Origin: an uncultured delta proteobacterium
GTDB taxonomy: Bacteria > Myxococcota_A > Polyangia > Polyangiales > B10-G4
DNA: 64,000 nt
Reading direction: 5' to 3'
NCBI GenBank assembly: GCA_963727445.1
Contig: CAVSGI010000013.1
Coordinates: forward strand, 209,316 to 273,315
The position numbers and the translations under genes were made by a program. Shown one piece after another: positions 23,504-41,456 of this stretch. Below the pieces are notes generated by a model that made no database searches, was not told the DNA's origin, and was given only the letters and a program-made list of their open reading frames with translations. Each line of letters starts with the position of its first letter. The first letter of the stretch is position 1.

Positions 23504-25426
23504 TCACTCCGGCACGGCCACCACCGTGCGGTCGCGCTCCTGGAAGAGCCAGCGCAGGGTCTCGCGGTCGAGGACGTCGTTCTGCATTCCCACGGCGCGG
23601 CTCAGCGCGGGCTGCGGATCGCGAGTGAGGGCGTACATGTCGATCTCGATGCTCGGGTCGAGCGTGCGGATGGTGCTGCCCGCGATCTGTCGCACCGCCG
23701 AGTAGTCGTCGATGGCGAGCACCGCGATGGCGGGCCTGAGCGATTCCATGTCCGAGGCTTCGCGCGCCGGCTCCCACCCGGCATGCCAGCCGGCGATCGC
23801 GCGCTGTACCGCGTCGCCACGAACCATCCAGAGCGCCGCCGCGGGCACCTCCCGGAGGCGCTCCGGGAGCTCGCCCGAATCGATGCCGTACCACGCCTCG
23901 AGCTTGTCGGCGGTCCAGCCGAGGCTCTGGTCGAGGTGGCAGAGGTTGCAGGCGTTGGGCGCGTCCCGCCCTTCGAATCCGCTCGCCGCCGGGCTGTCGA
24001 AGCGATGGCTCCGGGTCGCGCTGAGCAGGCCGTAGCTGCTGTAGGGCATGTGGCAGCTCACGCACGCGGCGCCGCTCGAGCCTGCCGGGTGATGGCTGTG
24101 GGCGACCACGTCTCGAACGATGTCCGCGTGGCAGCTGCCGCCGCAGAGTCGGTCGTCGTCGGCACCCGGAGGCAGCTGCTCTTCGGTCGCCTCGGCGTGC
24201 ATGGTGTGGCAGGTGATGCAGCTCATCCCGCCCTCGAGGTAGCAGCCCGAGCGGATCATCGCGTCGTACTCGCGACCCGCGACGCGCGTGACACCGTTCG
24301 TCCAGAAGGACTCGACCATGTCGCGCTCGGCGTCGTCGCTGAGCTTCCAGACGTCGCGTAGCTCGGTGGTGCGGGCGGCGAGCGCCGCCATCCCGTCATA
24401 GTCGAGATGATCCGAGAGCAGCTCGCCCGGGACGAAGTCGTGGTCGGGGGCGTCGCTGCGGCCGTCGGCCACGGTGTGGCAGCTCCCGCAGATGCTCGCG
24501 GCGTGGGGCGCGTCGAGCCTTCGCGGGTTCACGATGGTGGGGTCGGCTTCGTCGTCCGCATGAAGCGCGTAGCGGCGGGCGGGCGAGGCGTTCGCCCGGA
24601 CGTGCTCGTCGGCCGGGCCATGACAGCGCTCGCAGGCGATCCCCAGCTCGGTCACCGCCATCTTCGAGCGCATCTCGCGCTCGATGTCCTCGGGCTTCCA
24701 GGGCCCGCCCGTGGTGTGGCAGGTGACGCAGCCGTCGGTCCAGACGTAGTGATCGAGCGCCTGGCCGTCGTCGTAGGGCCCCTGCAGGAACGAGTCGTCG
24801 TTGGCGAGCCAGCGCTCTTCGTGAATGAACCAGACGAAGGGCAGCTGAATCAGGGAGCCGTCGTCGGCCTCCACCCAATAAGCCTGCACGTGGTGGGAGC
24901 CGGTGGTCAGGATCACGCGACGCGGGACGGCGCCGTCGACGGGGTCGTAGCTCTCGGCATCGACGTGGAGCGCGTAGAAGCCGTCGCCCTGCTCGAAGAT
25001 CCGAAAGGCCGTGCCGCGCTCCTCGAGGATCCGCCCGTCGAAGGGCGCCACCACCGCCTCCGGCGTGGCCGGCTGGGTCATCGTGCGATGAAAGGAGTCG
25101 TGCCAGCTCTCGTATTGACCGGGGTGACACGCGCGGCAGGCGTCGGAGCTCGAGTAGCCTTCGCCCTCCCCGATGTCTGGTCGCGCGTCCGCGAGCTCGT
25201 GATCGGTCGGCGCCGGACGACCGATGCAGGCGACGGCCCAGATGGTGGTGGTGCCGAAGAGCGTGGTGACCAGGAAACGGATCGTCCAATGCGCGCCGCG
25301 GGTGAGGAACCAGCCGACCGCGGTGACGATGAGCACCAGCGCGCCGAGCCAGAGGGCGAGCGCGCTCACGAGTCGCCCACCTTTCGAAGCGACCAGCCCA
25401 CCGAGAGGAGCCCAATCAAGAGGCAC
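23504..25426 (-). CDS. multiheme (about 8 CxxCH) c-type cytochrome with N-terminal TM helices
   Basis: CxxCH motifs CRACH, CVTCH, CERCH, CGSCH, CITCH, CGGSCH, CVSCH, CNLCH; N-terminal membrane anchor; C-terminal helical-repeat region. Confidence 0.75.
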   Translation of the reverse strand: MPLDWAPLGGLVASKGGRLVSALALWLGALVLIVTAVGWFLTRGAHWTIRFLVTTLFGTTTIWAVACIGRPAPTDHELADARPDIGEGEGYSSSDACRACHPGQYESWHDSFHRTMTQPATPEAVVAPFDGRILEERGTAFRIFEQGDGFYALHVDAESYDPVDGAVPRRVILTTGSHHVQAYWVEADDGSLIQLPFVWFIHEERWLANDDSFLQGPYDDGQALDHYVWTDGCVTCHTTGGPWKPEDIEREMRSKMAVTELGIACERCHGPADEHVRANASPARRYALHADDEADPTIVNPRRLDAPHAASICGSCHTVADGRSDAPDHDFVPGELLSDHLDYDGMAALAARTTELRDVWKLSDDAERDMVESFWTNGVTRVAGREYDAMIRSGCYLEGGMSCITCHTMHAEATEEQLPPGADDDRLCGGSCHADIVRDVVAHSHHPAGSSGAACVSCHMPYSSYGLLSATRSHRFDSPAASGFEGRDAPNACNLCHLDQSLGWTADKLEAWYGIDSGELPERLREVPAAALWMVRGDAVQRAIAGWHAGWEPAREASDMESLRPAIAVLAIDDYSAVRQIAGSTIRTLDPSIEIDMYALTRDPQPALSRAVGMQNDVLDRETLRWLFQERDRTVVAVPE

Positions 25427-25809
25427 AGCGCGCCGACGGGAACCAGCCCGATCGCCGGGCCGGGATCGCCGCCCTGAATCCCGATGCCGGCCAGGGCGAA
25501 GCCGAGGGGCAACAGGATGCTCGCGCCGACGAGCGCGCGGGAGGCGAGGACCACTTCACGCCCCGAGAGCGAGAGTGCGTGAAGCGTCGCACCCCAGGCG
25601 ATGTGGACGAGCCCGAGGAGCCCACCGTGTGCGTGGGAGAGGCGCAACATCAGCCGGCGCGTTTCGTTGGCCACGTCCAGGTACCAGGGGACCTTGAACC
25701 CGTGCATCGCCTCGAGGGTCAGCCCGACGGTCGCGAAGAAGAGGAGCGTCCACCACCCGAAGCGAAAGTGAAAGAGCGCCCGCCCCGCCCGGTCTGCATC
25801 CCTCGCCAT
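25366..25809 (-). CDS. small integral membrane protein (about 4 TM), hypothetical
   Basis: 147 aa; hydrophobic segments alternating with His-rich loops (LSHAHGGLLGLVHIAW); overlaps the 5' end of the cytochrome ORF, so one of the two starts is probably internal. Confidence 0.4.
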   Translation of the reverse strand: MARDADRAGRALFHFRFGWWTLLFFATVGLTLEAMHGFKVPWYLDVANETRRLMLRLSHAHGGLLGLVHIAWGATLHALSLSGREVVLASRALVGASILLPLGFALAGIGIQGGDPGPAIGLVPVGALCLLIGLLSVGWSLRKVGDS

Positions 25810-26009
25810 CCCGACTCACCCGTCGCTTCGACCGTCGCGCCCCCACCGACATTTGTAAAGGACGCTCAGATCCCGTTGCTGAGCCCTCTCGCGCCGATCG
25901 GCTATGATGGGCCGATGGTGGATCTCCGCTCCTGGCCCTCGCCGACCCTCGCGGGGCCCTTCGCCCCCGCCGCCCCCTCGATCCGCTGGCCCCTCGCGCA
26001 ACCGATCGA

Positions 26010-26789
26010 TTGACCGACGATCTCACCGATGACGCGATCGCCGGGAGCTTCCGCGTCTTTCAGCGGAAGCGCGGGCATCGCTACAGCCTCGACGACGTGG
26101 TCACGGCGTGGGAGGCGGCGCGCGCGCGGCCCGACGCCAGGCGCGTGCTCGACCTCGGCTGCGGCATCGGCTCGGTGCTGATCATGCTCGCCCATCGATT
26201 TCCAGAGGCAGCGCTCACCGGGGTCGAAGCCCAGGACATCTCCTACGAGCTCCTCAAACGCAACGTCAGCCGCAACGCGCTCGACGAACGCGTGACGCTC
26301 CGCCACGGCGACCTGCGCGATCACGACATGCTGATGAACCTTCCGGATGCGCCCTTCGATCTCATCAGCGGAACGCCGCCCTACATGCGCCCCGAAGAGG
26401 GCACGCTGCCGCCCGACTCGCAGAAGGCGCACGCGCGCATGGAGCTCCGCGGCGGCGTCGAGGACTACCTGGTCGCGGCAGCGCGAGTGGTCGCGCCGGG
26501 CGGACGGATCGTGGTCTGCGCCGGCGCGCGCAGCCCGGAGCGCGCCATGGACGGCGGGCGCGAAGCCGGCCTTCTGCCGCTGCGGCGCCGCGACGTGATT
26601 CCCCGCGCAGGGAGCGCGCCCCTCTTCGGCGTCTACACCTTCGTGCGCAAGGAGGACCACGACGGCTCCTTCGAGCACAGCGCGCCTCTGGTCGCGCGCG
26701 GTGAAGGCGGCGAGCGAACCCCGGCCGCCCACGAGCTGCGTCGGTTCTTCGGCCTGCCGGTGAACGAAGCGGAAGCCCCCTCACCATGA
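26010..26789 (+). CDS. class I SAM-dependent methyltransferase, TrmN6/YfiC-like (amino-MTase motif TPPY)
   Basis: Motif I LDLGCGIGSV; FDLISGTPPY resembles the N6-adenine NPPY/NPPF motif of tRNA m6A37 MTase; stop overlaps the next start (ATGA). Confidence 0.6.
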   Translation: MTDDLTDDAIAGSFRVFQRKRGHRYSLDDVVTAWEAARARPDARRVLDLGCGIGSVLIMLAHRFPEAALTGVEAQDISYELLKRNVSRNALDERVTLRHGDLRDHDMLMNLPDAPFDLISGTPPYMRPEEGTLPPDSQKAHARMELRGGVEDYLVAAARVVAPGGRIVVCAGARSPERAMDGGREAGLLPLRRRDVIPRAGSAPLFGVYTFVRKEDHDGSFEHSAPLVARGEGGERTPAAHELRRFFGLPVNEAEAPSP

Positions 26790-27976
26790 CCGCGAAGAAA
26801 CGACAGGCGCTCAGCCACGTCGGGGGTCCCGCCCGAGTCGAGGGCGACGCGGAGGCCGGAGCGCTCCTCGCCGAGGCCCTGGCGAACGTCCACCAGGTCG
26901 ACAAGGACGAGCTCACGCACGGCTTCCACACCTACCCGGCAAAGATGCATCCCGGGATCGCGCGCAGCCTCATCGAGAGCTTCTCCTCCTCCGACGAGAC
27001 GGTCCTCGACCCCTTCGTCGGCAGCGGCACGGTCGCCGTCGAAGCGCTGATCGCAGGCAATCGCCCGGTCGGCGTGGACCTGAACCCGCTCGCACTGCGC
27101 ATCGCCGAGGTCAAGACACAGCTCCGTCGCGAGGGTGGACGCACGCGCTTCCTCTCCGTCGCCGAAGAGATCGCCCTCCGCTCCGAGGAGCGCGTGCGCG
27201 CACGCGTGGAGGCGCGCGCCAAGCTGCCGCCCGGCGAGGCGAAGCACTGGAAGGGACACACCCTCAAGGAGCTCGCCGGCCTCATGGAGGAGATCCAGGC
27301 GGTCGACGACGATCAGGATTGGCGCGCCCTCGAGATGGTCTTCTCCTCGATCGTGGTCAAGGTCTCGCAGCAGCGCTCGGACACCGATGATCGCGAGAGC
27401 GAGAGCGAGAAGCGCATCCGCAAAGGTCTGCCCACCGAGCTCTTCTTCCGCCGCGCGAAGGAGCTCGTGGAGCGGTGGGAGGTGCTCTCCGAGCGCGCGC
27501 CCGAGCGCGCCGCGCGACCGCTCTTCTTCGAAGGCGATGCCCGCCGCCTGCCGCGCTTCGTCCCGCAGCGCATCCGCGCGGACCTCATCGTGAGCTCGCC
27601 GCCCTACGGTGGCACATACGACTACATCGACCACCACGCGCGGCGCTACGCTTGGCTGGGGATCGATCCCCAGCGCTTCGAGCGCAACGAGGTCGGCGCA
27701 CGCCGGCGCCTCAAGGGGCCCGACGGGGCGCGCCGCTGGGACCGCGAGGTGGAAGAGCTCCTGGTCGCCATGGCCGCCGTGCGCCGCACGAAGCACGCGC
27801 CGATCATCCTGCTGGTGGGAGACGCCGAAATCGGCCGTCAACGCGTAGACGCAGCGAAACAATTGCGGCGTCTGGCTCCGCGCGCCGAGCTCGAAGTGGT
27901 GGCGTCGGCCTCGCAGGAGAGGCCGGATTTCCGCGGCGGACCGAGCCGGCGCGAGCACCTCGTGCTGCTCACTTGA
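26786..27976 (+). CDS. amino-group (N6-A/N4-C/N2-G type) methyltransferase with alpha-like motif order (X-I...IV); DNA or RNA target unresolved
   Basis: FHTYPAKMHPGIARSLIE (HPTQKP-like motif X) + VLDPFVGSGTVAVEA (motif I) near the N-terminus; SSPPYGG (motif IV) at about aa 270; translationally coupled to the upstream MTase. Confidence 0.6.
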   Translation: MTAKKRQALSHVGGPARVEGDAEAGALLAEALANVHQVDKDELTHGFHTYPAKMHPGIARSLIESFSSSDETVLDPFVGSGTVAVEALIAGNRPVGVDLNPLALRIAEVKTQLRREGGRTRFLSVAEEIALRSEERVRARVEARAKLPPGEAKHWKGHTLKELAGLMEEIQAVDDDQDWRALEMVFSSIVVKVSQQRSDTDDRESESEKRIRKGLPTELFFRRAKELVERWEVLSERAPERAARPLFFEGDARRLPRFVPQRIRADLIVSSPPYGGTYDYIDHHARRYAWLGIDPQRFERNEVGARRRLKGPDGARRWDREVEELLVAMAAVRRTKHAPIILLVGDAEIGRQRVDAAKQLRRLAPRAELEVVASASQERPDFRGGPSRREHLVLLT

Positions 27977-29007: not shown

Positions 29008-29481
29008 TCAAACGAGCAGAATCGCGATCTCGGGATCGAGGCGATAGCCGCCGTCGACGCGCTGAATGATCTCCGCGAGCCCCGCCTTCCGCAGCGCCGA
29101 GAGCGCGACGTGAAGTCGGTTCTTCGCGGCGTTGGGGGCGATGTGCTCACCGGGCCATACGGCGGCGATCAGCGCTTCCGGCGACGTGATCTCGCTTGGC
29201 TCGTCCGCGCGTTTCGTCGCGAGCACCATCAGCAATCTGCTCGCAGGACCATCCCGATACAGAGACGATGCGACTTGCGCACCGGGAGGCCGAAAAGCGG
29301 CACCATCCTCTCTCACCAGCAAAACTGGGGTCGTCTGTCCGCTTAAATCGTCACCAGGGCGCACGATGCGCTCCACGCCGGATTTCTGTCTCCGGCGACG
29401 GCGCCTGAAATTGTTGGGGGCTTCCTGGGGATGCTTTCGAAGGGGGGACTCGTCAGCCATCATGGGCTGACTGGGTTTCAC
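29008..29481 (-). CDS. winged-helix (OmpR/PhoB trans_reg_C-like) DNA-binding protein without a receiver domain
   Basis: C-terminal ITSPEALIAAVWPGEHIAPNAAKNRLHVALSALRKAGL...GGYRLD matches the OmpR-type wHTH pattern (L...VW........N.L.V.I..LRKK....I.TV.G.GYRL); Arg-rich disordered N-terminus. Confidence 0.5.
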   Translation of the reverse strand: MKPSQPMMADESPLRKHPQEAPNNFRRRRRRQKSGVERIVRPGDDLSGQTTPVLLVREDGAAFRPPGAQVASSLYRDGPASRLLMVLATKRADEPSEITSPEALIAAVWPGEHIAPNAAKNRLHVALSALRKAGLAEIIQRVDGGYRLDPEIAILLV

Positions 29482-30190: not shown

Positions 30191-33100
30191 ATGAGATCTG
30201 GTTGGCTGGTGGTTGGGATGGCGCTCGGCGCCATCCTCTTTGCGGCGTGTGGGGACGACGAAGGTACGCTCTCGCAGACGGTGGCGACCGTCCGCCCCGT
30301 CCGCGGGGAGGTGCACGTCGGCGACAGCGACGCGCGGGTCCCGCGGGTCGCGCGGATCGCTGCTGGCGACAGGCTCATCACCGGCGAGGACGGCCTCGCC
30401 CGGCTCACGCTGGACCAGGGCTCGTCTCTGCTCCTCGGGCCGGGCTCGGAGGCGTCGATCGATGCGGAGGGAGTGCTCACGCTGAGCGCGGGCCTCGCCT
30501 TCGCCGACGTCCTGTCGGGCGACCAGCTCGAGATCGCCACCGAGCGCGGCACGGTGCGTGTGGCCGACGCCGGCGCGAGCATCGAGGTGAGCGACGTCGG
30601 CACCGGGGTCTACGTGGTGCGCGGTGAGGTCGCTTTCCGCGCGGGCGAAGCGCGCGGTGCCGTGCGCGCGGGCGAAGAGCTGAAGCTGAGCGCGGGCGCG
30701 CCGGCGATCGCGGCGGCGACGCTCTGGGAGGACTGGACCGGCGGCCTCGCGCGCCCGGGGCCCGCCGATTCGGATGCACCAGAGGGCGTCGGGACGCTCG
30801 AAGCGCGTGTCCCCGACGAGATCGGTCAGGCCCGCTGGCCCCTCGCCATCCGCCGCCTCGACGTGCGCGTGCGCGTCGAGGGCGACCTCGCGATCACCGA
30901 GGTCGATCAGGAGTTCTTCAACCCGGCGTCCGAGACCGTCGAGGGCCTCTATCGCGTGCGCGTCCCCCGCACCGCGGTGCTCCAGCGCTTCGCCGTCGAT
31001 CGCAACGGCCAGCTCGTCGACGGATACGTGCGCGAGAAGGCGCAGGCGCGCCAGGCCTACGAGGCCCAGGTCTACCGCGGCTCCACCGACGACCCGGCGC
31101 TCCTCGAGTGGGACGCGCCCGGCGCCTACCGCGCGCGCATCTACCCCATCGCCGCCGGCGAGACGCGGCGCATCGTCGTCCGCTACGCCGAGTGGCTCGC
31201 GCGCCCCGCCCCCGGCGCGCCGCGCATCTACACCTACCCGATGGGCGGCGGCGCGCGCGCGCCGCACGTGCAGGAGCTGGCCATCACCTGCGACCTCGGC
31301 CACGCCAGCGCGACCTCGCTCCGCGCCGGCCTCGGCGCCGCGATCGAGGGCACGTCCGTCGAGCTCCGCCAGAGCGACGTCCGCCCGCGCGCCGACTTCT
31401 GGCTCGAGCTGATCGACGCCGACTCGCCCGAGGTGCTCACCGCCGAGCGCGCCCCCCATCAACCGCCCCAGCGCGCCCCCGGTTCGCGCGTCATCACCAA
31501 CGAAGCGGACGAGCGGGACTATTGGTACCTGCCGGTCGTCCTGCCCGAGTCGCTCTTCGGAGAGCAACAGGACGAGGGGATCGACGTCATCGTCGTCGCC
31601 GACGTCTCTGCCGCCACCGACCGCTCGCATCTCGAGCTCGGTAAGAGCGTGGTCGAGTCTCTGACGGCGCACCTCGGCCCCGAGGACCGCGTGGCGATCG
31701 TCACCAGCGACCTCACGATTCGCAGCGTCGAAGGCGATGGCGCGCCCACACTCGGCCCGGCCAGCCGCGAGCGCCTCGACGCGCTCCTCGAAGGGCTGAG
31801 CCGCGTGAGCCCCGGCGGCGCCACGGATCTGGGCGCTGCGATCACCGCTGCATCCGAGCTCCTCACGCCCGAGCGCTCGAGCGCGGTGGTCTACGTCGGC
31901 GACGGCGCGCCCACCGTGGGCGAGCTCGGCGCCGAGGGGCTGCTCACGCGCATCGCGCGTCTCCCCTCGCCGCCGCGCCTCTACGCCGTCGGCGTGGGCG
32001 CCACCGCGAACCTCGACCTCCTCGAGACCCTGACCCACGGGGGCGGCCTCGCCCTCCGCGTCGAGGAGCGCGCATCGGCGGCCGACGCCGCCCTCCAGAT
32101 CCTCGCCCACGCGAGCCGACCACTCGCTCAACGGGTCGAGGTCGATCTCGGCGACGGCATCGACAACGCCTTTCCGCGTAGGCCGGTGGACGTCGTGCGC
32201 GGCGAGGTGCTGCCAGTGGCGGGACGCGTGCGCGACGAGCCGCCCTCGGAGATTACGGTCCGCGGCCTGCTGCGCGGCGAGCCCTTCGAAGAGAAGATCC
32301 GCATCACCACCGAAGAGAGCCAGGACGCGACCGATCTTCGTCTCCGGTGGGCGGGCGAGCGCCTGCGACAACAGCTCCTCGAAGGCGCGACCCGCGAGGA
32401 GATCGCCGAGCTCGGCACGCGCTACGGCCTGATCACGCCCTTCACCAGCTATTACGTGCCGAGCGCGCGCGAGCTCGCGGAGATGGGTCCGGCGGCGAGC
32501 GTGCTGATCGACAAGCGCGGGCTGATCGTCGAAGGAATCACCGAGCGCTTCGGGATGAAGGAGTCGCCTTCGCCCGAGCACGCACGCGCGTTCGTGCCGA
32601 GGGCGGCGCTTCTCCCGCTCGCCCTCGCGGCCTGCGATTCAGACGAGGCACCAGCCGCCGCGGCCGGCGGGTCGACGCCGGTGGACACCCCGGTCGCGTC
32701 GACCGAGGGAGAGAAGCCGGCGGAGCAGTCCGAAGAAGCGGCGGCCGACCCCCACATGGCGCGCGAGGAAGTGGCGCCGACCGAGCCGAGCACCGGCACG
32801 AGCATGGCGATGCCCGCGGCCCCTCCACCGACCGCCGTGCCCGAGCCCGAGACCGAGGCGGCGGCTGACGAGACCGCCCAGGCCCAGCACGCTCCACTCG
32901 CACGACGCTCGGCACACAATCGCTACGGGATCGAGGGGCCCGAGGGCGGAAGCGGCGCGAGCGGTGAACCGGATGCCGACGATGCCGAAGAGGCGGGGTC
33001 CTTCGGGACCAACACCGCCGCCGGCAACGATCCGATGTCGGCGCTCGGCGCGCTGATGGGCGACCAGATCGACGGCAACGCGGGCGTCGGCGGCCTGGGA

Positions 33101-35035
33101 ATGCGTGGAACCGGTCGCGGCGGCGGGGGCGCCATGGGCGGGGAGGGTCTGGGACGCGACGCGCGCGATCTCGCCGCGGACAACGGTGTCCTCGGAACGA
33201 TCGGATACGGACAGGGAGCGGGTCGAAACGAAGACGATCGCCGGAACGCCAACGTTCGCGAAGGCCGCGCCGAAGTCCGGGGCTCGCTGGACCGCGCGGT
33301 GATCGGGCGCGTGGTGCGCCGCCATCGCAACGAGATCCGCTTCTGCTACGAGCAGGAGCTGACGCGCCAGCCGAACCTCGGCGACGGCGAGGTGAAGACG
33401 AGCTTCATCATCTCCGCCACCGGCGCTGTGCAGGCCGCGACCGTCGCCGACAGCACGCTGAACAACGCGCGCGTCGAGACCTGCATCTCGCAGGCGGTGC
33501 GCCGCTGGGCGTTTCCCTCGCCGTCGGGCGGCGGCATCGTCGTCGTACAATTCCCCTTCGTCTTCAGCAGCAGCGATGGCGGTGGTGGTGGCGGCGGCGG
33601 TGGTGGCAACGGCGGCGGCGTGGCGGTCCCCGTCATCGCCTTCCACGTCGCGCTCCACCAGGCGCGCCGATGCAGCGACGCTGCCGGCCTGCTCCTCGAC
33701 GATCGCCGCGCCATCTGGAACGAGCGCCTCGGTCAGGCGGGCGGGCCCGCGGGCTGGGTGCGCGTCTACGAAGAAGCGAAGCGCGACTGCGAGACGCCCC
33801 AGCTCCGCGACCGCCGCGCGCTGCTGCGGCTGATCCTGAACCGCGCCGGCGGCGTCGCGCCGATGATCCAGGTCTACCGGCATCTGTCGGACGCGAGCGC
33901 TCGCCTCTACCTGCGCGCCGCGATCCTTCGCCGCGTGCGGAGCCCCGACGACCTGCGCATGGTGCGCGAGGCCTTCGATCTGACGCGCGTCCTCGACGAG
34001 GAGATGATCAAACAGGTGATCGAGCGCGCCACCGACGGGCCAGGCCGCATCCGCGCCATCCGTGGGCTCATCGCGCAGTATCCCTTCAGCTTCGATCTGA
34101 AGCTCCGCCTCCTCGAGGAGCTCGAATCGCAGGGACGCCTCCCCGAGGCCAAGCGCCTCGCGCACGACCTCCGCGCCGATCCCCTCGCGGACCCTGGCGT
34201 GCGCACCGCCGTCGGCGAGATGTACCTTCGCCTCGGCGACGAGAACGAGGCGCGTCGCGTCTTCAGTGAGATCGTCGAGTTCGCGCCCCTCGACGAGCTC
34301 GCGCGGCGGCGCCTCGGCGACCTCTACCGCGCCCACGGCTGGTACGAGGAGGCGTACCGCCAGTACCAGACGCTCGCGGAGATCCGTCCGGACGATCCCG
34401 GCGTGATGCTCTTCCTCGCCCAGGCTGCGGCGGGCGCCGGACGCATCGACGAGGCGCTCCGCCTCGAGCAGCGCGTCGCCGAGACGGCGGAGCCGGGCGA
34501 GAGCTTCGGTGTCGCGCGCGCGGCGATCCTCTGGTCGAGCGTGCGCTTCGCGAAGCTCCGCGAAAAGGCGCGCGAGGAGCACGACGACGAGGCGCTCGAG
34601 TCCCTCGCCGCGCGCATGCGCCGCTCGGGCGTCCTGCGCGAGGCGGGCGACATGCGGGTCACGCTCACCTGGTCCCATCCAGACGCCCAGCTCTCGCTCT
34701 GGGCCGCGCATCCGGGCCTGGGCCTGTCGCGGCCGACGGACATCTCGCCCGAGCACGGCATCGAGGCTTTCGACGTCCTCGAAAAGGAGGACGGCGCCTA
34801 CCGCATCGAGGTCAGACGCGGGCCACCCGAGCACGGGCAGCGCGAGACCGCGCTCGAGGGCCAGCTGGTCGTGGTCTGGAACGAAGGCACACCCGAGGAG
34901 AAGGTGGCGGTCCATGCCATCACCTTCCCGGCGCCCCAGGACGGCCGGAGCCCCGAGCTCGCCCGCGCGTGGGTGATCGAAGGGCGGACGATGAGACCCG
35001 GGACGGCCGAAGGGTGGCCGGAGGGATTGCGATGA
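30191..35035 (+). CDS. giant lipoprotein (~1614 aa): FecR-like - VIT - vWA - TonB_C/AgmX-like - TPR - C-terminal beta domain
   Basis: Start at MRSGWLVVGMALGAILFAACG (lipobox). FecR-like region (VRGEVHV...LITGEDGLARLTLDQGSSLLLGP). VIT region (WPLAIRRLDVRVRVEGDLAITEVDQEFFNP...YRARIYPIAAGETRRIVVRY). vWA region (DVIVVADVSAATD...DGAPTVG). TonB_C-like region (CISQAVRRWAFPSPSGGGIVVVQFPFVFSS). TPR helices. Confidence 0.7.
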   Translation: MRSGWLVVGMALGAILFAACGDDEGTLSQTVATVRPVRGEVHVGDSDARVPRVARIAAGDRLITGEDGLARLTLDQGSSLLLGPGSEASIDAEGVLTLSAGLAFADVLSGDQLEIATERGTVRVADAGASIEVSDVGTGVYVVRGEVAFRAGEARGAVRAGEELKLSAGAPAIAAATLWEDWTGGLARPGPADSDAPEGVGTLEARVPDEIGQARWPLAIRRLDVRVRVEGDLAITEVDQEFFNPASETVEGLYRVRVPRTAVLQRFAVDRNGQLVDGYVREKAQARQAYEAQVYRGSTDDPALLEWDAPGAYRARIYPIAAGETRRIVVRYAEWLARPAPGAPRIYTYPMGGGARAPHVQELAITCDLGHASATSLRAGLGAAIEGTSVELRQSDVRPRADFWLELIDADSPEVLTAERAPHQPPQRAPGSRVITNEADERDYWYLPVVLPESLFGEQQDEGIDVIVVADVSAATDRSHLELGKSVVESLTAHLGPEDRVAIVTSDLTIRSVEGDGAPTLGPASRERLDALLEGLSRVSPGGATDLGAAITAASELLTPERSSAVVYVGDGAPTVGELGAEGLLTRIARLPSPPRLYAVGVGATANLDLLETLTHGGGLALRVEERASAADAALQILAHASRPLAQRVEVDLGDGIDNAFPRRPVDVVRGEVLPVAGRVRDEPPSEITVRGLLRGEPFEEKIRITTEESQDATDLRLRWAGERLRQQLLEGATREEIAELGTRYGLITPFTSYYVPSARELAEMGPAASVLIDKRGLIVEGITERFGMKESPSPEHARAFVPRAALLPLALAACDSDEAPAAAAGGSTPVDTPVASTEGEKPAEQSEEAAADPHMAREEVAPTEPSTGTSMAMPAAPPPTAVPEPETEAAADETAQAQHAPLARRSAHNRYGIEGPEGGSGASGEPDADDAEEAGSFGTNTAAGNDPMSALGALMGDQIDGNAGVGGLGMRGTGRGGGGAMGGEGLGRDARDLAADNGVLGTIGYGQGAGRNEDDRRNANVREGRAEVRGSLDRAVIGRVVRRHRNEIRFCYEQELTRQPNLGDGEVKTSFIISATGAVQAATVADSTLNNARVETCISQAVRRWAFPSPSGGGIVVVQFPFVFSSSDGGGGGGGGGGNGGGVAVPVIAFHVALHQARRCSDAAGLLLDDRRAIWNERLGQAGGPAGWVRVYEEAKRDCETPQLRDRRALLRLILNRAGGVAPMIQVYRHLSDASARLYLRAAILRRVRSPDDLRMVREAFDLTRVLDEEMIKQVIERATDGPGRIRAIRGLIAQYPFSFDLKLRLLEELESQGRLPEAKRLAHDLRADPLADPGVRTAVGEMYLRLGDENEARRVFSEIVEFAPLDELARRRLGDLYRAHGWYEEAYRQYQTLAEIRPDDPGVMLFLAQAAAGAGRIDEALRLEQRVAETAEPGESFGVARAAILWSSVRFAKLREKAREEHDDEALESLAARMRRSGVLREAGDMRVTLTWSHPDAQLSLWAAHPGLGLSRPTDISPEHGIEAFDVLEKEDGAYRIEVRRGPPEHGQRETALEGQLVVVWNEGTPEEKVAVHAITFPAPQDGRSPELARAWVIEGRTMRPGTAEGWPEGLR

Positions 35036-38000
35036 AGCGCCCGATGATCCTGATCGCGCCCGTCGTGGGCGCCCTCCTCAGCCTCACCCTCGCCGCCTGC
35101 GGCGACGACGACCTCGCGCCCGCCCCCACCGTGGCCCTCGCCGAGGTGATCCGCGGCGATTTCGCACTCGAGCGCGAGGGGCACGTCACGAAGGTGCGCG
35201 GACCCGAGCGCGTCGAAGAGGCGTCGACGGTGCGCACGGGCGCCGACGGGCGCGGCTTCCTTTCGCTCGACTCGGGCGCGTGGGTGCTCCTCGACCGCGA
35301 CAGCGCCCTCGTGCCCTCCCTCGAAGGGCTCACGCTGAGCGGTGGCCGCGCGTGGGTGGACGCCGGTTCGGCCGACGCGATCACGGTGGACACCGGCGCG
35401 GGCGAAGTGCGCGCGACCGGCGCGACCTTCGCGGTCGAAAAGGCCGAGGGCGGCGCGCGCATCTACTGCGGCAGCGGCGAGGTCACCTATCAGAGCGACG
35501 AAGGCGAAGGACGACTCGCCCAGGGCGAGACCCTCGTCCTCGGCGACGGAGCGCCCCGGGTAGAGACGCCGCTCTGGGACGACTGGACCGGCGGGCTCGC
35601 CGATCCGACACGCGACGCGGAGATCGGGCCGTCTCACATCGGCGTCCTTCGCGGGCGACGTCTCGACCAGCTCGGTCAGGCGCGGACGCCGCTGCCGATC
35701 CGGGGGCACGAGGTGAACGCCGTGCTCCGCGGCGACCTCGCCGAGACCACGGTCGTTCAGACCTTCTTCAACGCGCGGAGCGACATCCTCGAAGCGGAGT
35801 ACGCGGTGCGTATCCCCGAAGGCGCCGTGGTGCAGGGTTTCGAGGTGGACACCGGCGGGGGCTTCGTGTCGAGCGTCGCCCTGCCGATGCAGACCACGGA
35901 CGGCTACGGCATCAACTGGGGCTCCCCGACGCTCGCTTCGAGCCGGCTGAGCTGGGACGGCCCGGGGCGCCTGCGCGCGCGCATCAACCCCGTCTCGCCA
36001 GGAGCGACGGTCCGCGTGAAGCTCCGCTACACCGAGTGGATGGACCGGCGCGGCGCGATGCGCACCTGGGTCTACCCGATGCAGACAAGCGAAGGCGCGC
36101 CGCAGATCGGGGAGTTCGTCCTCGAGGTGGACGCCTCCGGGGCACAGGCCCGCGCCTATCGCGCGGGCATGGGGGCGACGGTCAGCGGCGGGCACATCGT
36201 GCTGCGCAGGAGCGACTTCCGCCCGCACGCCGACTTCTATCTCGACCTCGTCGACGCCGAGCCGCCGAAGTCCGACCAGGCGAAGCTCTATCTCGCCAAC
36301 GCGGCGGCGAGCGACGACCCGCTCGAAGAGGACGAGCGCTACGTGCTCGTGGATGTGCCCACCGAGGGGATCGCCGACAGCGATGACGAAACGGCCGAGC
36401 ACCCCCTCGAGCTGGTGATCGTGGTGGACGTGAGCGGCGCGACCGACGACGAGGATCTCGAGCTCTCGCAGAGCATCGTGGAGGGCGTGCTGCGCCAGCT
36501 CGCACCCACCGACCGCGTCACGCTGCGCCTCGGCGACGTGCGCGCCCGCGTTCCCGAAGGCATCCCCGCCGAGCCCGCGGAGGCGACGCCAGAGACCCGA
36601 GAAGCGCTCACCGACGCCCTCGCGCACGCCGACCTCGGCGGCGCGACCGATCTGGCGACCGTGCTCCGCGAAGCCGCGCGTGCGGTGGCGGGGCGGCCCC
36701 GGGGCGCGGTGCTCTATCTCGGCGACGCCATCCCGACCACCGGTCCCCTCGACGCGTCCGCCATCGGCGAGGTGCTGGCCTCGGTCGACGCCCCGCCGCG
36801 TTTCTTCGGCCTCGCGGTTGGCGACGGCGCGAACCTGGGCCTTCTGCGCGCACTCTTCGGGGAGGAGTCGCAGCTCGTCGCGGAGCGCACCGAGGCGTCG
36901 CGGGCGGTGATGGGCATCCTCGCCGAGGCCGCGCGGCCGACGCTTCGCGGCGTGAGCGTCGCGATGGGCGAGGGCATCGAGCGCGTCTACCCACGGCCGC
37001 CGATCACCGTCGCCGACCGATCGCACATCCGCTTCGTCGGCCGGCTCGTCGGAGAGGTCCCCACACGCATCACCCTGAGCGGCAGCCGCGACGGAGAAGC
37101 GTTCTCGAAGTCCTACCAGGTCGGGCAGCGGGACATCGTCGACGGGGGCGACATCGCGAAGCGCTGGGCCAACGAGCGGCTGAGGCAGCTCATGGACGAG
37201 AGCGCGGGCCGCGAGGCGCTGGTCGAGCTGGGCATGCGCTTTTCGCTGCTGTCGCCCTGGACCTCGCTGGTGGTGGGCGGGAGCTACGGCACCACCTACG
37301 TGCCGATCGAGGGGTTCGATCACGACCCGATGCGCCATCCCTTCTGGCTGGGCGGCGGCGGCGGCGGTCTGACCATCGACAGCCTCGAAGGACAGAGCGG
37401 TTGGCGCCGCCGCGCGCGCACGGAGGTCGAGCCGCCGGTCACCGCACCGGAAGAGACCTGGGTGCGCCGTGTGAGCGCGGACGACGAGGACGCGAGCGCG
37501 AGCGGCGACGGAGGGCTCGCCGAAGCCGCCGTCGGGCGCGCGCTCTCCCTCGGCACCCGCGGACCGCGCGGGTGCTACGAGCGCAAGCTGACGGTGCGTC
37601 CCGATCTGTCTGGCGACGTCACGGTGGAGGTGCGTGTCGACGGAGAAGGCAAGGTGGGCGAGGCCCGCGTGGTGGGCTCGACGCTGTCGGCCGCCGACGT
37701 CGACGACTGCATCCTCACGGAGGTGCGGGGGATCCGCTTCCCGGCGACCGGTGCTTCGACGGCGGTCCAGGTCACCCACGTCTACACCTTCGCCATGCCG
37801 AGCCGCGCCTTCGGCGAGCGCCGCCAGTGCAGCGACGCTTCGTATCAGGAGCTCGAGGTGCGGCGCCAGCTCTGGCACGAGCGCCTCGCTTCGAGCGCCG
37901 GCGTGTCGGGTGCGCTCCAGGTCTACCGCGAGGCGTCGCGCTGGTGCGAGCTCCGCGGATGGCGCGCACGGCGGACGCTGCTCTCGATGATGCTCCAGAG

Positions 38001-39168
38001 CGTCGGCGGCGTCGCGCAGCAGGTGCAGCTCTACCGCGCCTTCGGCGCCGACTCGTCGGTCGCCGGCTATCTGCGCCGCGCGATCCTCCGCCACGTGCGC
38101 ACCCCGGCCGACGTGATGGCGGTGCGCGCGGGGCTCGGCCTCGACGTGCCTGTCGACTGGCGCGTCTTCAGCAGGCTCTGGAAGGCGAATCACGATCCGG
38201 AAGCGCGCCTCCGGCTCGTGCGCACCTGGCTCGAGGTGGTGCCGGACGAGATGGACCTGCGACTGCGACTGCTGGCGCTCCTCGAAGAGACGGGCAAGCT
38301 CCCGGAGGCGCGCCGCCTCGCCCGCGAGCTTCGGGCCTGGCCGCTGGCCGACGCGCGAGTGCGCACGCAGGTGGGCGAGTTCTGGCTTCGCCAGGACGAC
38401 GTCGAGGAGGCACGCCGCGTCTTCAGCGAGATCGTCGAAAACGCGCCGCTCGATCCGTGGGCGCGGCGCCGACTCGGCGACCTCTATCGCAGCCACGGCT
38501 GGTACGACGACGCCTATCGCGAGTATCAGACGCTCGCGCGCCTGCGTCCCGACGAGGACTCGGTGCTCCTCGACCTCGCGCGGGCGGCGGCGGGCGCCGG
38601 CCGCATCGATGAGGCGCTTCGCTTGGAGCAGCGCCTGTCGGAGACGGCGGACGCAGACGCCAAGGACGGGGTCGCCGAGCTCGCGCGCCTCTGGACCGAG
38701 GTGCGTTTCGCCCGGCTGAAGAGCGAAGAGCTCGACGAGGCGACCGCCGCGGCCCTCAGGCGTCGCATCCGCCAGTCGGGGGCGCTGCGCGAGCCGCCGG
38801 CGATCTTCGTGGCCCTCACCTGGCCGCACCCCGACGATCGGCCCGAGCTCTTCCTTCATTTCCCCGAGAGCGCGATCACCAGCGAGAGGGAGGACGGCTA
38901 CTGGGAGCCCGCCGAGGTCACCGGCACGCTCCAGGGCATCAGCGCGAGTCACATCCGCGAGCTCGAAGGGGGCGACTACCTCCTCGAGGTGCGCCGCGAA
39001 GAAGAGGACGAGCTGCGCGACCTCGAGGCTCAGCTCCTGGTCGTCGTCGCCCCCGCCACCCCCGAGGAGCGCATCCTGCGCGCCGACGTGCGCCTCTCGC
39101 GCGAAGCGCGAAAGGCGCGTTTCGCGCTGAACGGCGACACCCTGCAGACGACGACCGTGAGCGACTGA
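35032..39168 (+). CDS. giant lipoprotein paralog (~1378 aa) with the same FecR-like - VIT - vWA - TonB_C-like - TPR architecture
   Basis: Start at MKRPMILIAPVVGALLSLTLAACG, overlapping the upstream stop (ATGA). Collinear with the upstream gene and clearly paralogous (e.g. LGQARTPLPIRGHEVNAVLRGDLAETTVVQTFFN; LVIVVDVSGATDD; CILTEVRGIRFPATGASTAVQVTHVYTF; RRLGDLYRSHGWYDDAYREYQTLA). Confidence 0.7.
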   Translation: MKRPMILIAPVVGALLSLTLAACGDDDLAPAPTVALAEVIRGDFALEREGHVTKVRGPERVEEASTVRTGADGRGFLSLDSGAWVLLDRDSALVPSLEGLTLSGGRAWVDAGSADAITVDTGAGEVRATGATFAVEKAEGGARIYCGSGEVTYQSDEGEGRLAQGETLVLGDGAPRVETPLWDDWTGGLADPTRDAEIGPSHIGVLRGRRLDQLGQARTPLPIRGHEVNAVLRGDLAETTVVQTFFNARSDILEAEYAVRIPEGAVVQGFEVDTGGGFVSSVALPMQTTDGYGINWGSPTLASSRLSWDGPGRLRARINPVSPGATVRVKLRYTEWMDRRGAMRTWVYPMQTSEGAPQIGEFVLEVDASGAQARAYRAGMGATVSGGHIVLRRSDFRPHADFYLDLVDAEPPKSDQAKLYLANAAASDDPLEEDERYVLVDVPTEGIADSDDETAEHPLELVIVVDVSGATDDEDLELSQSIVEGVLRQLAPTDRVTLRLGDVRARVPEGIPAEPAEATPETREALTDALAHADLGGATDLATVLREAARAVAGRPRGAVLYLGDAIPTTGPLDASAIGEVLASVDAPPRFFGLAVGDGANLGLLRALFGEESQLVAERTEASRAVMGILAEAARPTLRGVSVAMGEGIERVYPRPPITVADRSHIRFVGRLVGEVPTRITLSGSRDGEAFSKSYQVGQRDIVDGGDIAKRWANERLRQLMDESAGREALVELGMRFSLLSPWTSLVVGGSYGTTYVPIEGFDHDPMRHPFWLGGGGGGLTIDSLEGQSGWRRRARTEVEPPVTAPEETWVRRVSADDEDASASGDGGLAEAAVGRALSLGTRGPRGCYERKLTVRPDLSGDVTVEVRVDGEGKVGEARVVGSTLSAADVDDCILTEVRGIRFPATGASTAVQVTHVYTFAMPSRAFGERRQCSDASYQELEVRRQLWHERLASSAGVSGALQVYREASRWCELRGWRARRTLLSMMLQSVGGVAQQVQLYRAFGADSSVAGYLRRAILRHVRTPADVMAVRAGLGLDVPVDWRVFSRLWKANHDPEARLRLVRTWLEVVPDEMDLRLRLLALLEETGKLPEARRLARELRAWPLADARVRTQVGEFWLRQDDVEEARRVFSEIVENAPLDPWARRRLGDLYRSHGWYDDAYREYQTLARLRPDEDSVLLDLARAAAGAGRIDEALRLEQRLSETADADAKDGVAELARLWTEVRFARLKSEELDEATAAALRRRIRQSGALREPPAIFVALTWPHPDDRPELFLHFPESAITSEREDGYWEPAEVTGTLQGISASHIRELEGGDYLLEVRREEEDELRDLEAQLLVVVAPATPEERILRADVRLSREARKARFALNGDTLQTTTVSD

Positions 39169-39204
39169 GAGCACATCTCGAAGTTGTGCTCTACCCTGGG
39201 CGCC

Positions 39205-39750
39205 ATGGCCCTCGGCTCCACGGTCTACCGCTTCGCCATCGAGCTCTCGGACGTCGACCGCGGCGTCTACGAGTCCCTCGACCTGCGTGTCGCGCAGCAC
39301 CCGTCGGAGAGCGTACGGCGCATGACCGCGCGGGTGCTCGCCTACGCCCTGCGCTACGAAGAGGGCATCGCGTTCGGCCGCGGCCTGTCCACCGCCGAAG
39401 ACCCCGCGCTCTGGGTCAAGGACCTGCGCGGCGACGTGAATGCGTGGATCGAGGTCGGCCTGCCCGCACCGGAGCGCCTCCACCGCGCCTCGAAGACCGG
39501 CGCGCGCGTCTACGTCTACACCCACAAGGACCCGACCCCGTGGCTCGCCACCCTTGCAGGCGCGAAGATCCACGCCCGCGAGCAGATCGAGGTCTACAGC
39601 CTCCCCCCAGCGCTCCTCGACGCCCTCGAGACGCGCATCGGCCGCAACGTCACCTGGGGCGTCACCCTCACCGACGGCCACCTCTACATCCAAGACGGCG
39701 ACGACACCCTCGAGGGGACACCGGTGCGGCATCTGCTCGACCAGGCTTGA
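39205..39750 (+). CDS. yaeQ: YaeQ family protein
   Basis: MALGSTVYRFAIELSDVDRGVYESLDLRVAQHPSESVRRMTARVLAYAL matches the conserved YaeQ N-terminus (TiYKa.l.iaDmDRhvYe.l.ltvArHPSE); length about 181 aa. Confidence 0.75.
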   Translation: MALGSTVYRFAIELSDVDRGVYESLDLRVAQHPSESVRRMTARVLAYALRYEEGIAFGRGLSTAEDPALWVKDLRGDVNAWIEVGLPAPERLHRASKTGARVYVYTHKDPTPWLATLAGAKIHAREQIEVYSLPPALLDALETRIGRNVTWGVTLTDGHLYIQDGDDTLEGTPVRHLLDQA

Positions 39751-39893: not shown

Positions 39894-41456
39894 ATGCGGT
39901 TCCTTCTCTTCGCCTCGATTCTGTCGTTCTCGGGATGCGGGAGCGACACCCAGCTCGAGCTCTTCGTCGATGTGCAGACGGCGCTTTCGCCGGGGAGCGA
40001 GTTCGATCTGGTGATGACGGAGATCTTCGCGGACGCAACGCCCGAGGCCGTGAGGCGCGTGGAGGTCTCCGCAGTGATGGGAGACGATTTCACCACGGGA
40101 CATCGCGCGGCCGAGTTCTCGGAGCTCGACCCGGGTCAGTACACGGTGCGTGCGACGCTGATGCTCCGCGGCTCCGAGGTCGCAAACCGCTCGGTGCTGG
40201 TCGCACTCGACTCCACGCGCGCGGTGACCATCGCGATCGGCGTGATGTGCAGCGGCGCCGGATGCCCTGACGGCGGCGTCGATGGCGGCGGCCTCGACGC
40301 AGGAATGGACGCCGACACCGCCATGCCGGACGCGTCGATCATGGACGCACCGCCCACGGATGCAGACACCTCGGCATCGGACGGAGGCGACGCTGACGCC
40401 CCGGACGGCAGCGCCTCGCCGTGGGGCTTCCGCAAGACGCTGACGATCGCCGACGGCATGCCGCGCGGAACGCTGAACGACTTTCCCGTCCTCGTGAGCA
40501 CGACCGATGCAGACCTCCGTTCAGTTTCCATGGGCGGCCGCGTCGCGCATTCGAGCGGTTACGACATCGTCTTCCGCGACGGTGACGAGATGCTCCCGCA
40601 CGAGATCGAGCGCTACGATCCCGCGACCGGCGAGCTGGTCGCGTGGGTCACCCTCCCCGTCCTGTCGTCCACCGGGAAGACGTTTCACATCTACTTCGGC
40701 AACCCCGCGATCAGCGCACCCACGATGAATCGGGCCGACGTGTGGCGTGCGGGCTTCGTGGGCGTCTGGCACATGGGTGAGGACGCGTGGACCGGCGCCC
40801 CCGGTGAAGTGCGCGACTCCACCGGCACCAACCCCGGGCGTGCGCTCGGTGGTTCGACCACCGTTCCGACGGGCAAGATCGGAAACGCCGGCACCTTCGG
40901 CGCCGACTCGTCGAACGTCGACGTCGGGATGAGCACCACCCTTCGACCGACCTCGATCACCGTGTCGGTGTGGGCCAACCCGGGGTCGGTCGGCTCAGTC
41001 CCCGACCGACACCCCTACATGCTCTGGCAGGACCTCTGGCGCTCCACGGGCTCGAATCCGCGCGGCTACTACATCGAGATCTACCGCACTCAGAGCGACC
41101 CGCGACCGACTTTCTACACGGCCAACGGAACGGAGATGGCGCACGCCTTCGCGACGACCCCCGTGGTGAACGGCACCTGGTACCACGTGGTCGGCACCCG
41201 CGACGAAGTCAGCGGCGTCACCCGCATCTACGTCGACGGAATCCAAGAAGGCTCGGCCAGCATGACCGGCGGCATCGCCTATCAGCCGAACGCGGTCCTC
41301 GTGGGCGGCACCGGGAGTCAGACCTGGGACGGGCTTCTGGACGAGGTACGAGTCGCCAACGTCCCCCGCTCCCCGGAGTGGATCTACACCGAATACGTCA
41401 ACCAGCTGTCCCCTGGCTCCTTCGTCGTCTTCGGCAGCCTCGAGACGCTTCCCTGA
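39894..41456 (+). CDS. DUF2341 + LamG/ConA-like (Laminin_G_3) domain lipoprotein
   Basis: Start at MRFLLFASILSFSGCG; Asp/Ala-rich acidic linker; DUF2341-like block (WGFRKTLTIADG...GYDIVF...TGELVAWVTLP...TFHIYFGNP); C-terminal LamG-like jelly roll (TWYHVVGTRDEVSGVTRIYVDGIQEG). Confidence 0.6.
   Translation: MRFLLFASILSFSGCGSDTQLELFVDVQTALSPGSEFDLVMTEIFADATPEAVRRVEVSAVMGDDFTTGHRAAEFSELDPGQYTVRATLMLRGSEVANRSVLVALDSTRAVTIAIGVMCSGAGCPDGGVDGGGLDAGMDADTAMPDASIMDAPPTDADTSASDGGDADAPDGSASPWGFRKTLTIADGMPRGTLNDFPVLVSTTDADLRSVSMGGRVAHSSGYDIVFRDGDEMLPHEIERYDPATGELVAWVTLPVLSSTGKTFHIYFGNPAISAPTMNRADVWRAGFVGVWHMGEDAWTGAPGEVRDSTGTNPGRALGGSTTVPTGKIGNAGTFGADSSNVDVGMSTTLRPTSITVSVWANPGSVGSVPDRHPYMLWQDLWRSTGSNPRGYYIEIYRTQSDPRPTFYTANGTEMAHAFATTPVVNGTWYHVVGTRDEVSGVTRIYVDGIQEGSASMTGGIAYQPNAVLVGGTGSQTWDGLLDEVRVANVPRSPEWIYTEYVNQLSPGSFVVFGSLETLP

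Follow-up and report, generated by a model that had tools for sequence, protein, structure and literature searches.

We analyzed a 64,000-nucleotide stretch of DNA (the window) from an uncultured delta proteobacterium of the order Polyangiales, which covers positions 209,316 to 273,315 of the forward strand of contig CAVSGI010000013.1 in GenBank assembly GCA_963727445.1. At positions 30191-39168 of the window lie two adjacent genes, here called A and B, that encode very large lipoproteins with the same string of domains. The stop codon of A and the start codon of B share the sequence ATGA at 35032-35035, and a GGAGG motif stands 7 nucleotides (nt) upstream of the B ATG. A sequence-only reading of this DNA had described a tandem pair with an ATGA overlap at about 35032, and its coordinates proved to be exact. 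It had also called the two proteins paralogous, which was borne out by BLASTP: A and B are 37% identical over the first 775 amino acids (aa; E 6e-121) and 43% identical over the last 566 aa (E 1e-98). The features of the pair are the following.

30191..35035, plus strand: gene A, the A-type paralogue, a 1614-aa lipoprotein (single open reading frame, ATG at 30191)
30191..30250, plus strand: signal peptide of A with lipobox LFAAC, read from the sequence
30278..30721, plus strand: FecR-like beta domain of A (aa 30-177)
30794..31552, plus strand: VIT domain of A and the next beta-sandwich (aa 202-454; PF08487 at 76.5 bits, cut-off 26.5; domain mapping)
31568..32122, plus strand: VWA domain of A (aa 460-644), with a non-canonical MIDAS (an adhesion site that depends on metal ions), D471-V-S-A-A-T476 (profile match to ITIH4 and ITIH1)
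32600..32635, plus strand: internal signal-like hydrophobic stretch and lipobox of A (aa 804-815, RAALLPLALAAC; Cys815 at 32633-32635)
32636..33280, plus strand: low-complexity linker of A, 215 aa, rich in A, G, E and P (aa 816-1030; composition)
33281..33565, plus strand: TonB-C-like domain of A, AgmX/PglI type, with a conserved Cys pair (aa 1031-1125; NF033768 at 101.5 bits, cut-off 40)
33575..33619, plus strand: glycine run of A, DG10NG3, read from the sequence
33665..34642, plus strand: alpha-helical solenoid of A, with a TPR core at 34172-34501 (Pfam TPR_2, TPR_19 and TPR_14)
34643..35032, plus strand: C-terminal beta-sandwich of A, homologous to the modelled domain of B (no Pfam family)
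35020..35035, plus strand: coupling junction (GGAGG at 35020-35024, B ATG at 35032-35034, A TGA at 35033-35035)
35032..39168, plus strand: gene B, the B-type paralogue, a 1378-aa lipoprotein (ATG at 35032)
35032..35100, plus strand: signal peptide of B with lipobox LTLAAC, read from the sequence
35128..35571, plus strand: FecR-like domain of B (aa 33-180)
35644..36366, plus strand: VIT domain of B and beta-sandwich (aa 205-445; PF08487 at 41.7 bits, cut-off 26.5; AlphaFold model)
36394..37311, plus strand: VWA domain of B (aa 455-636) and a post-VWA beta/helical module (aa 637-760)
37510..37791, plus strand: TonB-C-like AgmX/PglI domain of B, with Cys848 and Cys893 (aa 827-920; NF033768 at 60.5 bits, cut-off 40)
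37798..38793, plus strand: helical solenoid of B, about 17 helices, with a TPR core at 38332-38661
38794..39165, plus strand: C-terminal beta-sandwich of B (aa 1255-1378; model strands E478-E594; no Pfam match)

Both proteins begin with a lipoprotein signal, MRSGWLVVGMALGAILFAAC followed by GDDE in A and MKRPMILIAPVVGALLSLTLAAC followed by GDDD in B. The signal peptides are predicted to be cleavable and no further transmembrane (TM) helix was found in either protein; a regular-expression search recovered the N-terminal lipobox in 83/120 A-type and 95/120 B-type homologues. The domain string that had been proposed from the letters alone stood up to profile searches and modelling. The VIT family exceeded its cut-off in both A and B in a Pfam profile search, as did the model for the AgmX/PglI type of TonB-C-like domain (NF033768), and several Pfam TPR families matched. 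The FecR-like and VWA assignments also hold; the FecR score exceeded the Pfam cut-off in B and fell marginally under it in A, and VWA_2 was sub-threshold in both proteins. Other evidence for the TonB-C-like domain consisted of weak matches to TonB C-terminal domains in the PDB (profile search, E 0.04) and of scores for TIGR01352 (20.8 and 20.1 bits for A and B) that lie under its cut-off of 27.1. Two Cys pairs are common to both paralogues (B numbering), 848/893 within the TonB-C-like domain and 933/972 right after it.

We modelled B with AlphaFold as two overlapping pieces, using 104 aligned homologues for each. Both models were confident, with a predicted local distance difference test score (pLDDT) of 92.3 and a predicted template modelling score (pTM) of 0.91 for residues 1-790, and a pLDDT of 92.3 and a pTM of 0.88 for residues 781-1378. 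In the C-terminal half the TonB-C-like unit was folded as alpha-alpha-beta-beta-alpha-beta and was followed by a TPR-type solenoid of about 17 helices and then by a nine-strand beta-sandwich, which corresponds to the C-terminal beta-rich domain that the sequence-only reading had noticed. Fold searches with this half of B returned TPR proteins only and Pfam gave no match, so the fold of the beta-sandwich was not identified by these searches. The glycine run of A, which is built of GGC/GGT repeats and lies between the TonB-C-like domain and the helical region, has no equivalent in B.

The VIT-VWA unit is related to that of the inter-alpha-trypsin inhibitor heavy chains (ITIH). Profile matches of the family were obtained to ITIH4 (E 2.9e-23), ITIH1 (E 7.7e-19) and the VIT domain of PARP4 (E 1.9e-5), and the pair shares with ITIH1/ITIH4, PARP4 and the bacterial sortase/exosortase-sorted VIT-VWA proteins (TIGR03788) a VIT domain that is followed immediately by VWA. 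In contrast to the ITIH-like proteins, A and B are bacterial and lipid-anchored, carry a FecR-like domain before this unit and TonB-C-like, TPR and beta-sandwich domains after it, have, in this lineage, A or G as the third MIDAS residue, and lack a C-terminal sorting signal. Their scores of 95 and 52 bits against TIGR03788 lie far under its cut-off of 552. The modified MIDAS of B consists of D466-x-S468-x-A-T471, T539 and D565, and D466, S468, T471, T539 and D565 (B numbering) are conserved across both paralogues.

Database searches returned at least 120 orthologues of A (47-71% identity) and at least 120 of B (50-76% identity). Those with an organism name came from metagenome-assembled genomes (MAGs) of Sandaracinaceae or Polyangiales and from Sandaracinus amylolyticus (AKF11715.1 and AKF11716.1), and a more distant query reached the cultured Polyangiaceae Chondromyces crocatus, C. 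apiculatus, Minicystis rosea, Polyangium aurulentum, P. mundeleinium and Byssovorax. When one genome per species was scanned, 69 loci were obtained, and wherever flanks existed the gene immediately upstream of the B-like gene was A-like and had the same orientation; the family thus did not prove to consist of scattered singletons, and the A-then-B pair is conserved in both Sandaracinaceae and Polyangiaceae. We scored the junctions with strict motifs in the window and 25 MAG loci (n=26). A stop/start overlap was present in 23/26 (21 of four bases and two of one base), and the tandem with a four-base overlap was also found in three inspected Polyangiaceae genomes (loci L071-L073). Of these 26 overlapping junctions (23 plus the three from Polyangiaceae), 24 had a Shine-Dalgarno-like motif 6-9 nt before the B start, within the final codons of A. 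These results support the translational coupling that had been suggested for the window and show that its signals are conserved.

In a neighbour-joining tree built from 1171 ungapped columns, all B-types were separated from all A-types and each group contained both bacterial families, which places the duplication before the split of Sandaracinaceae and Polyangiaceae. The C-terminal 598 residues, searched against 1.84 billion representative proteins, gave 202 clusters at E <= 1e-30, nearly all of 1300-1600 aa, and the short ones were fragments at contig ends. Thus, the architecture is stable and was not found dismantled. Stand-alone lipoproteins of the C-terminal half, which we considered as fusion donors, were not found among these matches. 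In the TPR core, A and B share 72% identity, compared with 28-42% in the other domains. Gene conversion was rejected as the cause of this identity: the A/B value between genomes is the same, which argues for purifying selection. B-type genes split into two or three open reading frames were seen in two MAG contigs (L054:11146-15531 and L046:10528-15533); we suspect assembly frameshifts rather than true pseudogenes.

No characterised protein with this domain combination was found among the database matches, which were named only as 'AgmX/PglI C-terminal domain-containing', 'VIT domain-containing', 'TonB family' or 'uncharacterized', and literature searches found nothing. The statement of the sequence-only reading that no characterised system is known to have this combination is supported by these results.

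A conserved neighbourhood of the pair with SixA, YaeQ and DUF2341 genes had also been proposed, and comparison of 70 related loci led us to reject such an operon. Homologues of the YaeQ, LamG/DUF2341 and TetR genes occurred in 0/70 loci. SixA recurred sporadically (in about 9-13 of the 70) and Ser/Thr kinases were seen in about 19; their distance from the pair, the side on which they lay and their orientation varied, and no other gene family recurred in more than nine loci. Because no further gene is conserved beside it, the pair itself appears to be the functional unit.

The two lineages differ in how the B-type proteins are anchored. A lipobox was found in 0/120 Polyangiaceae B-types, and a simple scan found an uncleaved TM helix directly before the FecR-like domain in 93/120; some of these proteins have a cytoplasmic tail of about 45 aa with a conserved RGDRYDVAEW motif. 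Such TM-anchored B-types place the family on the inner membrane, at its periplasmic face. The orthologues in the three inspected Polyangiaceae genomes are the following.

L071:5505-10004, L072:5451-10004 and L073:5376-10004: A-type orthologues
L071:10001-14260, L072:10001-14161 and L073:10001-14398: B-type orthologues

In these genomes, which belong to three genera, the gene directly upstream of the pair, on the same strand, encodes a protein of about 670 aa that has an OmpA domain and faint TSP_3 repeats (L071:3286-5295, L072:3155-5203 and L073:3175-5151). Neither in the window nor in the Sandaracinaceae loci did a counterpart adjoin the pair, and the sole other match, in L046, is weak (100 residues, 36% identity) and lies downstream of the pair on the opposite strand. 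Being confined to the three Polyangiaceae genomes, this gene was rejected as a universal partner.

Altogether, our results favor the reading that A and B form a two-subunit, passive, non-energised adaptor or tether in the periplasm, to which we assign a probability of roughly 0.45. The mutual binding of A and B, their periplasmic location and the tether role are all inferred. A two-subunit complex is suggested by the conserved coupling, the lack of any other linked gene and the near-frozen TPR core in both paralogues, the 72% identity of which is what one would expect from a symmetric interface or from a partner that both subunits share. A location in the periplasm, at the membrane face, is suggested by the export signals, the TM-anchored orthologues and the conserved Cys pairs, which, lying in the C-terminal halves, fit an oxidising compartment. 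Finally, since there is neither a motor-binding helix in the proteins nor a motor gene nearby, a passive adaptor or tether seems a better description than a force transducer.

All of these modules are binding modules: the periplasmic signalling domain of outer-membrane transducers is the target of FecR-like domains, strands of a partner are taken up through beta augmentation by TonB-C-like domains, and VWA domains and TPR solenoids bind protein ligands and peptides, respectively. In the proposed mechanism, A and B would be made in fixed proportion from the overlapping genes and exported by Sec, and in the lineage of the window both subunits would be tethered to a membrane through their N-terminal lipid. 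Each subunit would present a ligand-binding head, composed of the FecR-like domain and the ITIH-like VIT-VWA unit with its modified metal site, followed by a flexible linker, a TonB/TolA-type domain like those of GltG/GltJ that is stabilised by disulfide bonding, the TPR solenoid with its near-frozen core, and the beta-sandwich as a cap. The complex may thereby connect heads that are anchored in a membrane with partners in the outer membrane or the periplasm. In the published model of the Myxococcus Agl-Glt machinery, GltD, a TPR lipoprotein, is the docking site for the TonB-CTD-like domains of GltG and GltJ, and these domains accept a beta strand of GltF (PMC11761067). A and B have the same two module types fused in one chain, which we count in favor of the adaptor reading.

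Several observations weigh against this reading. Whether lipoproteins of this phylum are destined for the inner membrane, the outer membrane or the surface cannot be read from their sequence. Solo A-type copies without a downstream B were seen at L066:9197-14431 and L070:9809-14341; one solo copy sits in a MAG that holds a complete pair on another contig (L032). The module set also varies: the Polyangiaceae A-types are lipoproteins without a detectable AgmX/PglI domain, and the MIDAS has the canonical form DxSxS in 89/112 Polyangiaceae B-types and reads DxSx[A/G]T in Sandaracinaceae A and B. Furthermore, an adaptor or tether does not account for the internal lipobox of A, which is considered below.

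Every module of A and B is known and their combination is uncharacterised; the pair partly resembles TonB/TolA, GltG/GltJ, the FecR regulators and the Bat proteins, and lacks the features that define each of them. Several alternative readings were weighed. The pair might belong to an energised system as its receiving or regulatory component; its TonB-C-like domains would then cooperate with a motor of the Exb, Tol or Agl type whose genes lie elsewhere, and might, for instance, compete for strands that resemble TonB boxes on barrels of the outer membrane, or themselves be pulled through a partner. In the Fec and Pup systems, FecR-like and TonB-C modules both recognise an extension that TonB-dependent transducers have at their periplasmic N-terminus, which we count in favor of this alternative. 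The AgmX/PglI-type domain is common to A, B and the proteins GltG (PglI) and GltJ (AgmX) of Myxococcus, and A gives a partial match of 158 bits to the last 185 positions of the GltG model (465-648), including the Gly-rich stretch before the domain, with the distal part of the A linker aligned to positions 465-560. However, the GltG and GltJ equivalogs (NF033760 and NF033761) were not reached, with 158 and 46 bits against 650 for GltG and 35 against 450 for GltJ. Unlike GltG and GltJ, A and B have neither a cytoplasmic FHA or ZnR/GYF domain nor the TM helix that binds AglRQS, and their TonB-C-like domain is internal rather than C-terminal; it was not detected in the Polyangiaceae A-types. They share the TonB/TolA-type fold with the TonB/TolA transducers (NF033768) but not the N-terminal motor-binding TM helix or the motor genes: no Exb, Tol or Agl gene was found among the neighbours in the window, and no such cluster recurred in the 70 loci. 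VWA proteins tethered to the inner membrane have been proposed to act as 'force transducers' (PMC12204202) and would offer a precedent. These proteins and the BatA/BatB VWA-TPR proteins have an SHLS-type TM helix or a MoxR/DUF58 operon, whereas A and B have no such motor-binding motif, and no gene for a MoxR-type AAA+ ATPase or DUF58 was found in the flanks in the window or in related loci. Altogether, a partnership with a motor appears unlikely.

Equally improbable, in our assessment, is that A and B act as surface adhesins, i.e. as outer-membrane lipoproteins flipped outward with a VIT-VWA head that binds substratum or matrix. Both proteins combine a lipobox with a VWA domain and their host clade consists of gliding myxobacteria. 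In M. xanthus, Lys at position +2 serves as an inner-membrane retention signal, and the G-D-D that follows the predicted lipidated Cys of A and B is unlike it. There is also a precedent in the Myxococcus adhesins CglB, which acts in gliding, and CglD, which like A and B are VWA lipoproteins in a myxobacterial envelope (PMC9946355). However, CglB, a small protein whose MIDAS is canonical, is loaded into the outer-membrane platform of the Glt machinery and lacks VIT, FecR-like, TonB-C-like and TPR domains, whereas the canonical MIDAS serine is replaced in the Sandaracinaceae lineage and no glt, agl or secretion genes adjoin the pair. The inner-membrane TM anchor of the Polyangiaceae B-types also speaks against a surface location. 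To our knowledge, FecR-like, TonB-C-like and TPR modules are periplasmic in all characterised systems, which counts against this alternative as well. A periplasmic coupling or adaptor role is favored over surface adhesion or signalling because of the Polyangiaceae B TM helix and because the window proteins have no cytoplasmic part.

A further possibility concerns A alone. The VIT-VWA module of A ends in a conserved TPFTSYYVPS motif; an uncharged stretch and a lipobox follow about 47 residues on, and the linker begins at once. The Cys of this internal site was present in 119/119 Sandaracinaceae A-types that have the TPFTSYYVPS anchor motif, and in the same 119 proteins position -3 was L or I in 110, position -2 was A, T or S in 94 and position -1 was G, A or S in all. 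Upstream, the consensus reads L-G-P-L-[AS]-[LI]-[AT]-G-C. The uncharged run has a median length of 14 residues (10 in the window); the hydrophobic stretch is 10-17 residues long, contains G-P and has acidic flanks. The site was found in 0/120 B-types, and none was found in the Polyangiaceae A-types, which have a charged low-complexity linker after the VWA module.

One reading of this site is that it works as a second lipidation site, lipidated by Lgt and probably cut by signal peptidase II (LspA). A would then be a polyprotein that yields a FecR-VIT-VWA lipoprotein and a TonB-C-TPR lipoprotein, so that the locus would give three lipoproteins in all, or else A would be a doubly anchored tether. 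The consensus, which forms a perfect lipobox after the uncharged run, its position exactly at the start of the disordered linker, and its restriction to one paralogue in one lineage all fit this reading. Two other explanations of the stretch were considered. An internal translation start before the lipobox was rejected, since a well-spaced Shine-Dalgarno motif with an in-frame start occurred in 2/36 cases compared with 21% of control windows; the conserved Val about 27 residues upstream is encoded by GTC in 8/12 cases, which argues against a start codon, and the ATG at 32555 in the window has no well-spaced Shine-Dalgarno motif. A stop-transfer helix is disfavoured by the short length of the stretch, its G-P and its acidic rather than basic flanks, and by the Cys pairs that the C-terminal half has in common with the fully exported B. 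However, signal peptides normally need a cytoplasmic N-terminus, yet the preceding 800 residues would already have been exported, and a literature search found no published precedent for an internal lipobox or for lipoprotein biogenesis of this kind. Furthermore, the upstream L-G-P-L is more conserved than is usual in signal peptides, which may indicate a binding motif instead. We therefore regard internal processing of A as improbable, somewhat more so than either alternative for the pair considered above; a more sober possibility is that the stretch is a specific docking motif.

The least probable of the alternatives is a FecR-type trans-envelope sensor that would detect an outer-membrane transducer and pass the signal to the inside of the cell, where the product of the nearby kinase, SixA or winged helix-turn-helix (wHTH) gene might receive it: the TM helix of Polyangiaceae B-types, with its occasional cytoplasmic tail and RGDRYDVAEW motif, and the Ser/Thr kinase and SixA genes upstream in the window are in its favor, but A and B, whose lipobox directly precedes the FecR-like domain, have no TM or cytoplasmic segment, the kinase and SixA genes are not consistently linked to the pair, and, in contrast to the FecR/PupR sigma regulators, with which they share the FecR-like domain, A and B carry a lipid anchor in place of the TM helix and have no anti-sigma domain, and no gene for an extracytoplasmic function (ECF) sigma factor or TonB-dependent transducer was found in the flanks of the pair in the window.

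The genes that surround the pair in the window were examined individually. A Ser/Thr kinase gene and a SixA-like gene (His_Phos_1, 54.7 bits) lie upstream. Downstream, a YaeQ gene (39184-39750, 195 bits) starts 16 nt past the B stop codon, and a LamG/DUF2341 protein (39894-41456) is a lipoprotein (MRFLLFASILSFSGC) whose start is at 39894 and not at the upstream GTG of the long open reading frame. The sequence-only reading had named these SixA, YaeQ and LamG/DUF2341 neighbours correctly. Its wHTH regulator fared less well: this open reading frame (29008-29481, minus strand) had only a weak Trans_reg_C match (E 0.17) and failed a coding filter based on third-position GC, so that its status as a gene is uncertain. 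Farther upstream are a multihaem cytochrome-like protein of about 680 aa (23504-25555, minus strand) and two methyltransferase-like genes (25908-27976, plus strand); in the closest relatives (L002, L011, L015, L034 and L054), the latter genes are found in synteny with those for the kinase and SixA.

The pair represents an envelope component of the Polyangia that is lineage-wide and uncharacterised; both Sandaracinaceae and Polyangiaceae have conserved it, in a group known for very large genomes, gliding motility and complex envelopes. Modules that usually reside in separate proteins of iron signalling, Ton/Tol and gliding systems are fused here, and the partners of the pair could reveal a motor-free use of TonB-C-like domains. 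Should the internal lipobox of A prove functional, the rules by which bacterial lipoproteins are processed would have to be extended. Carriers in culture, among them Sandaracinus amylolyticus, Chondromyces crocatus, Minicystis rosea and Polyangium species, make the pair reachable by experiment.

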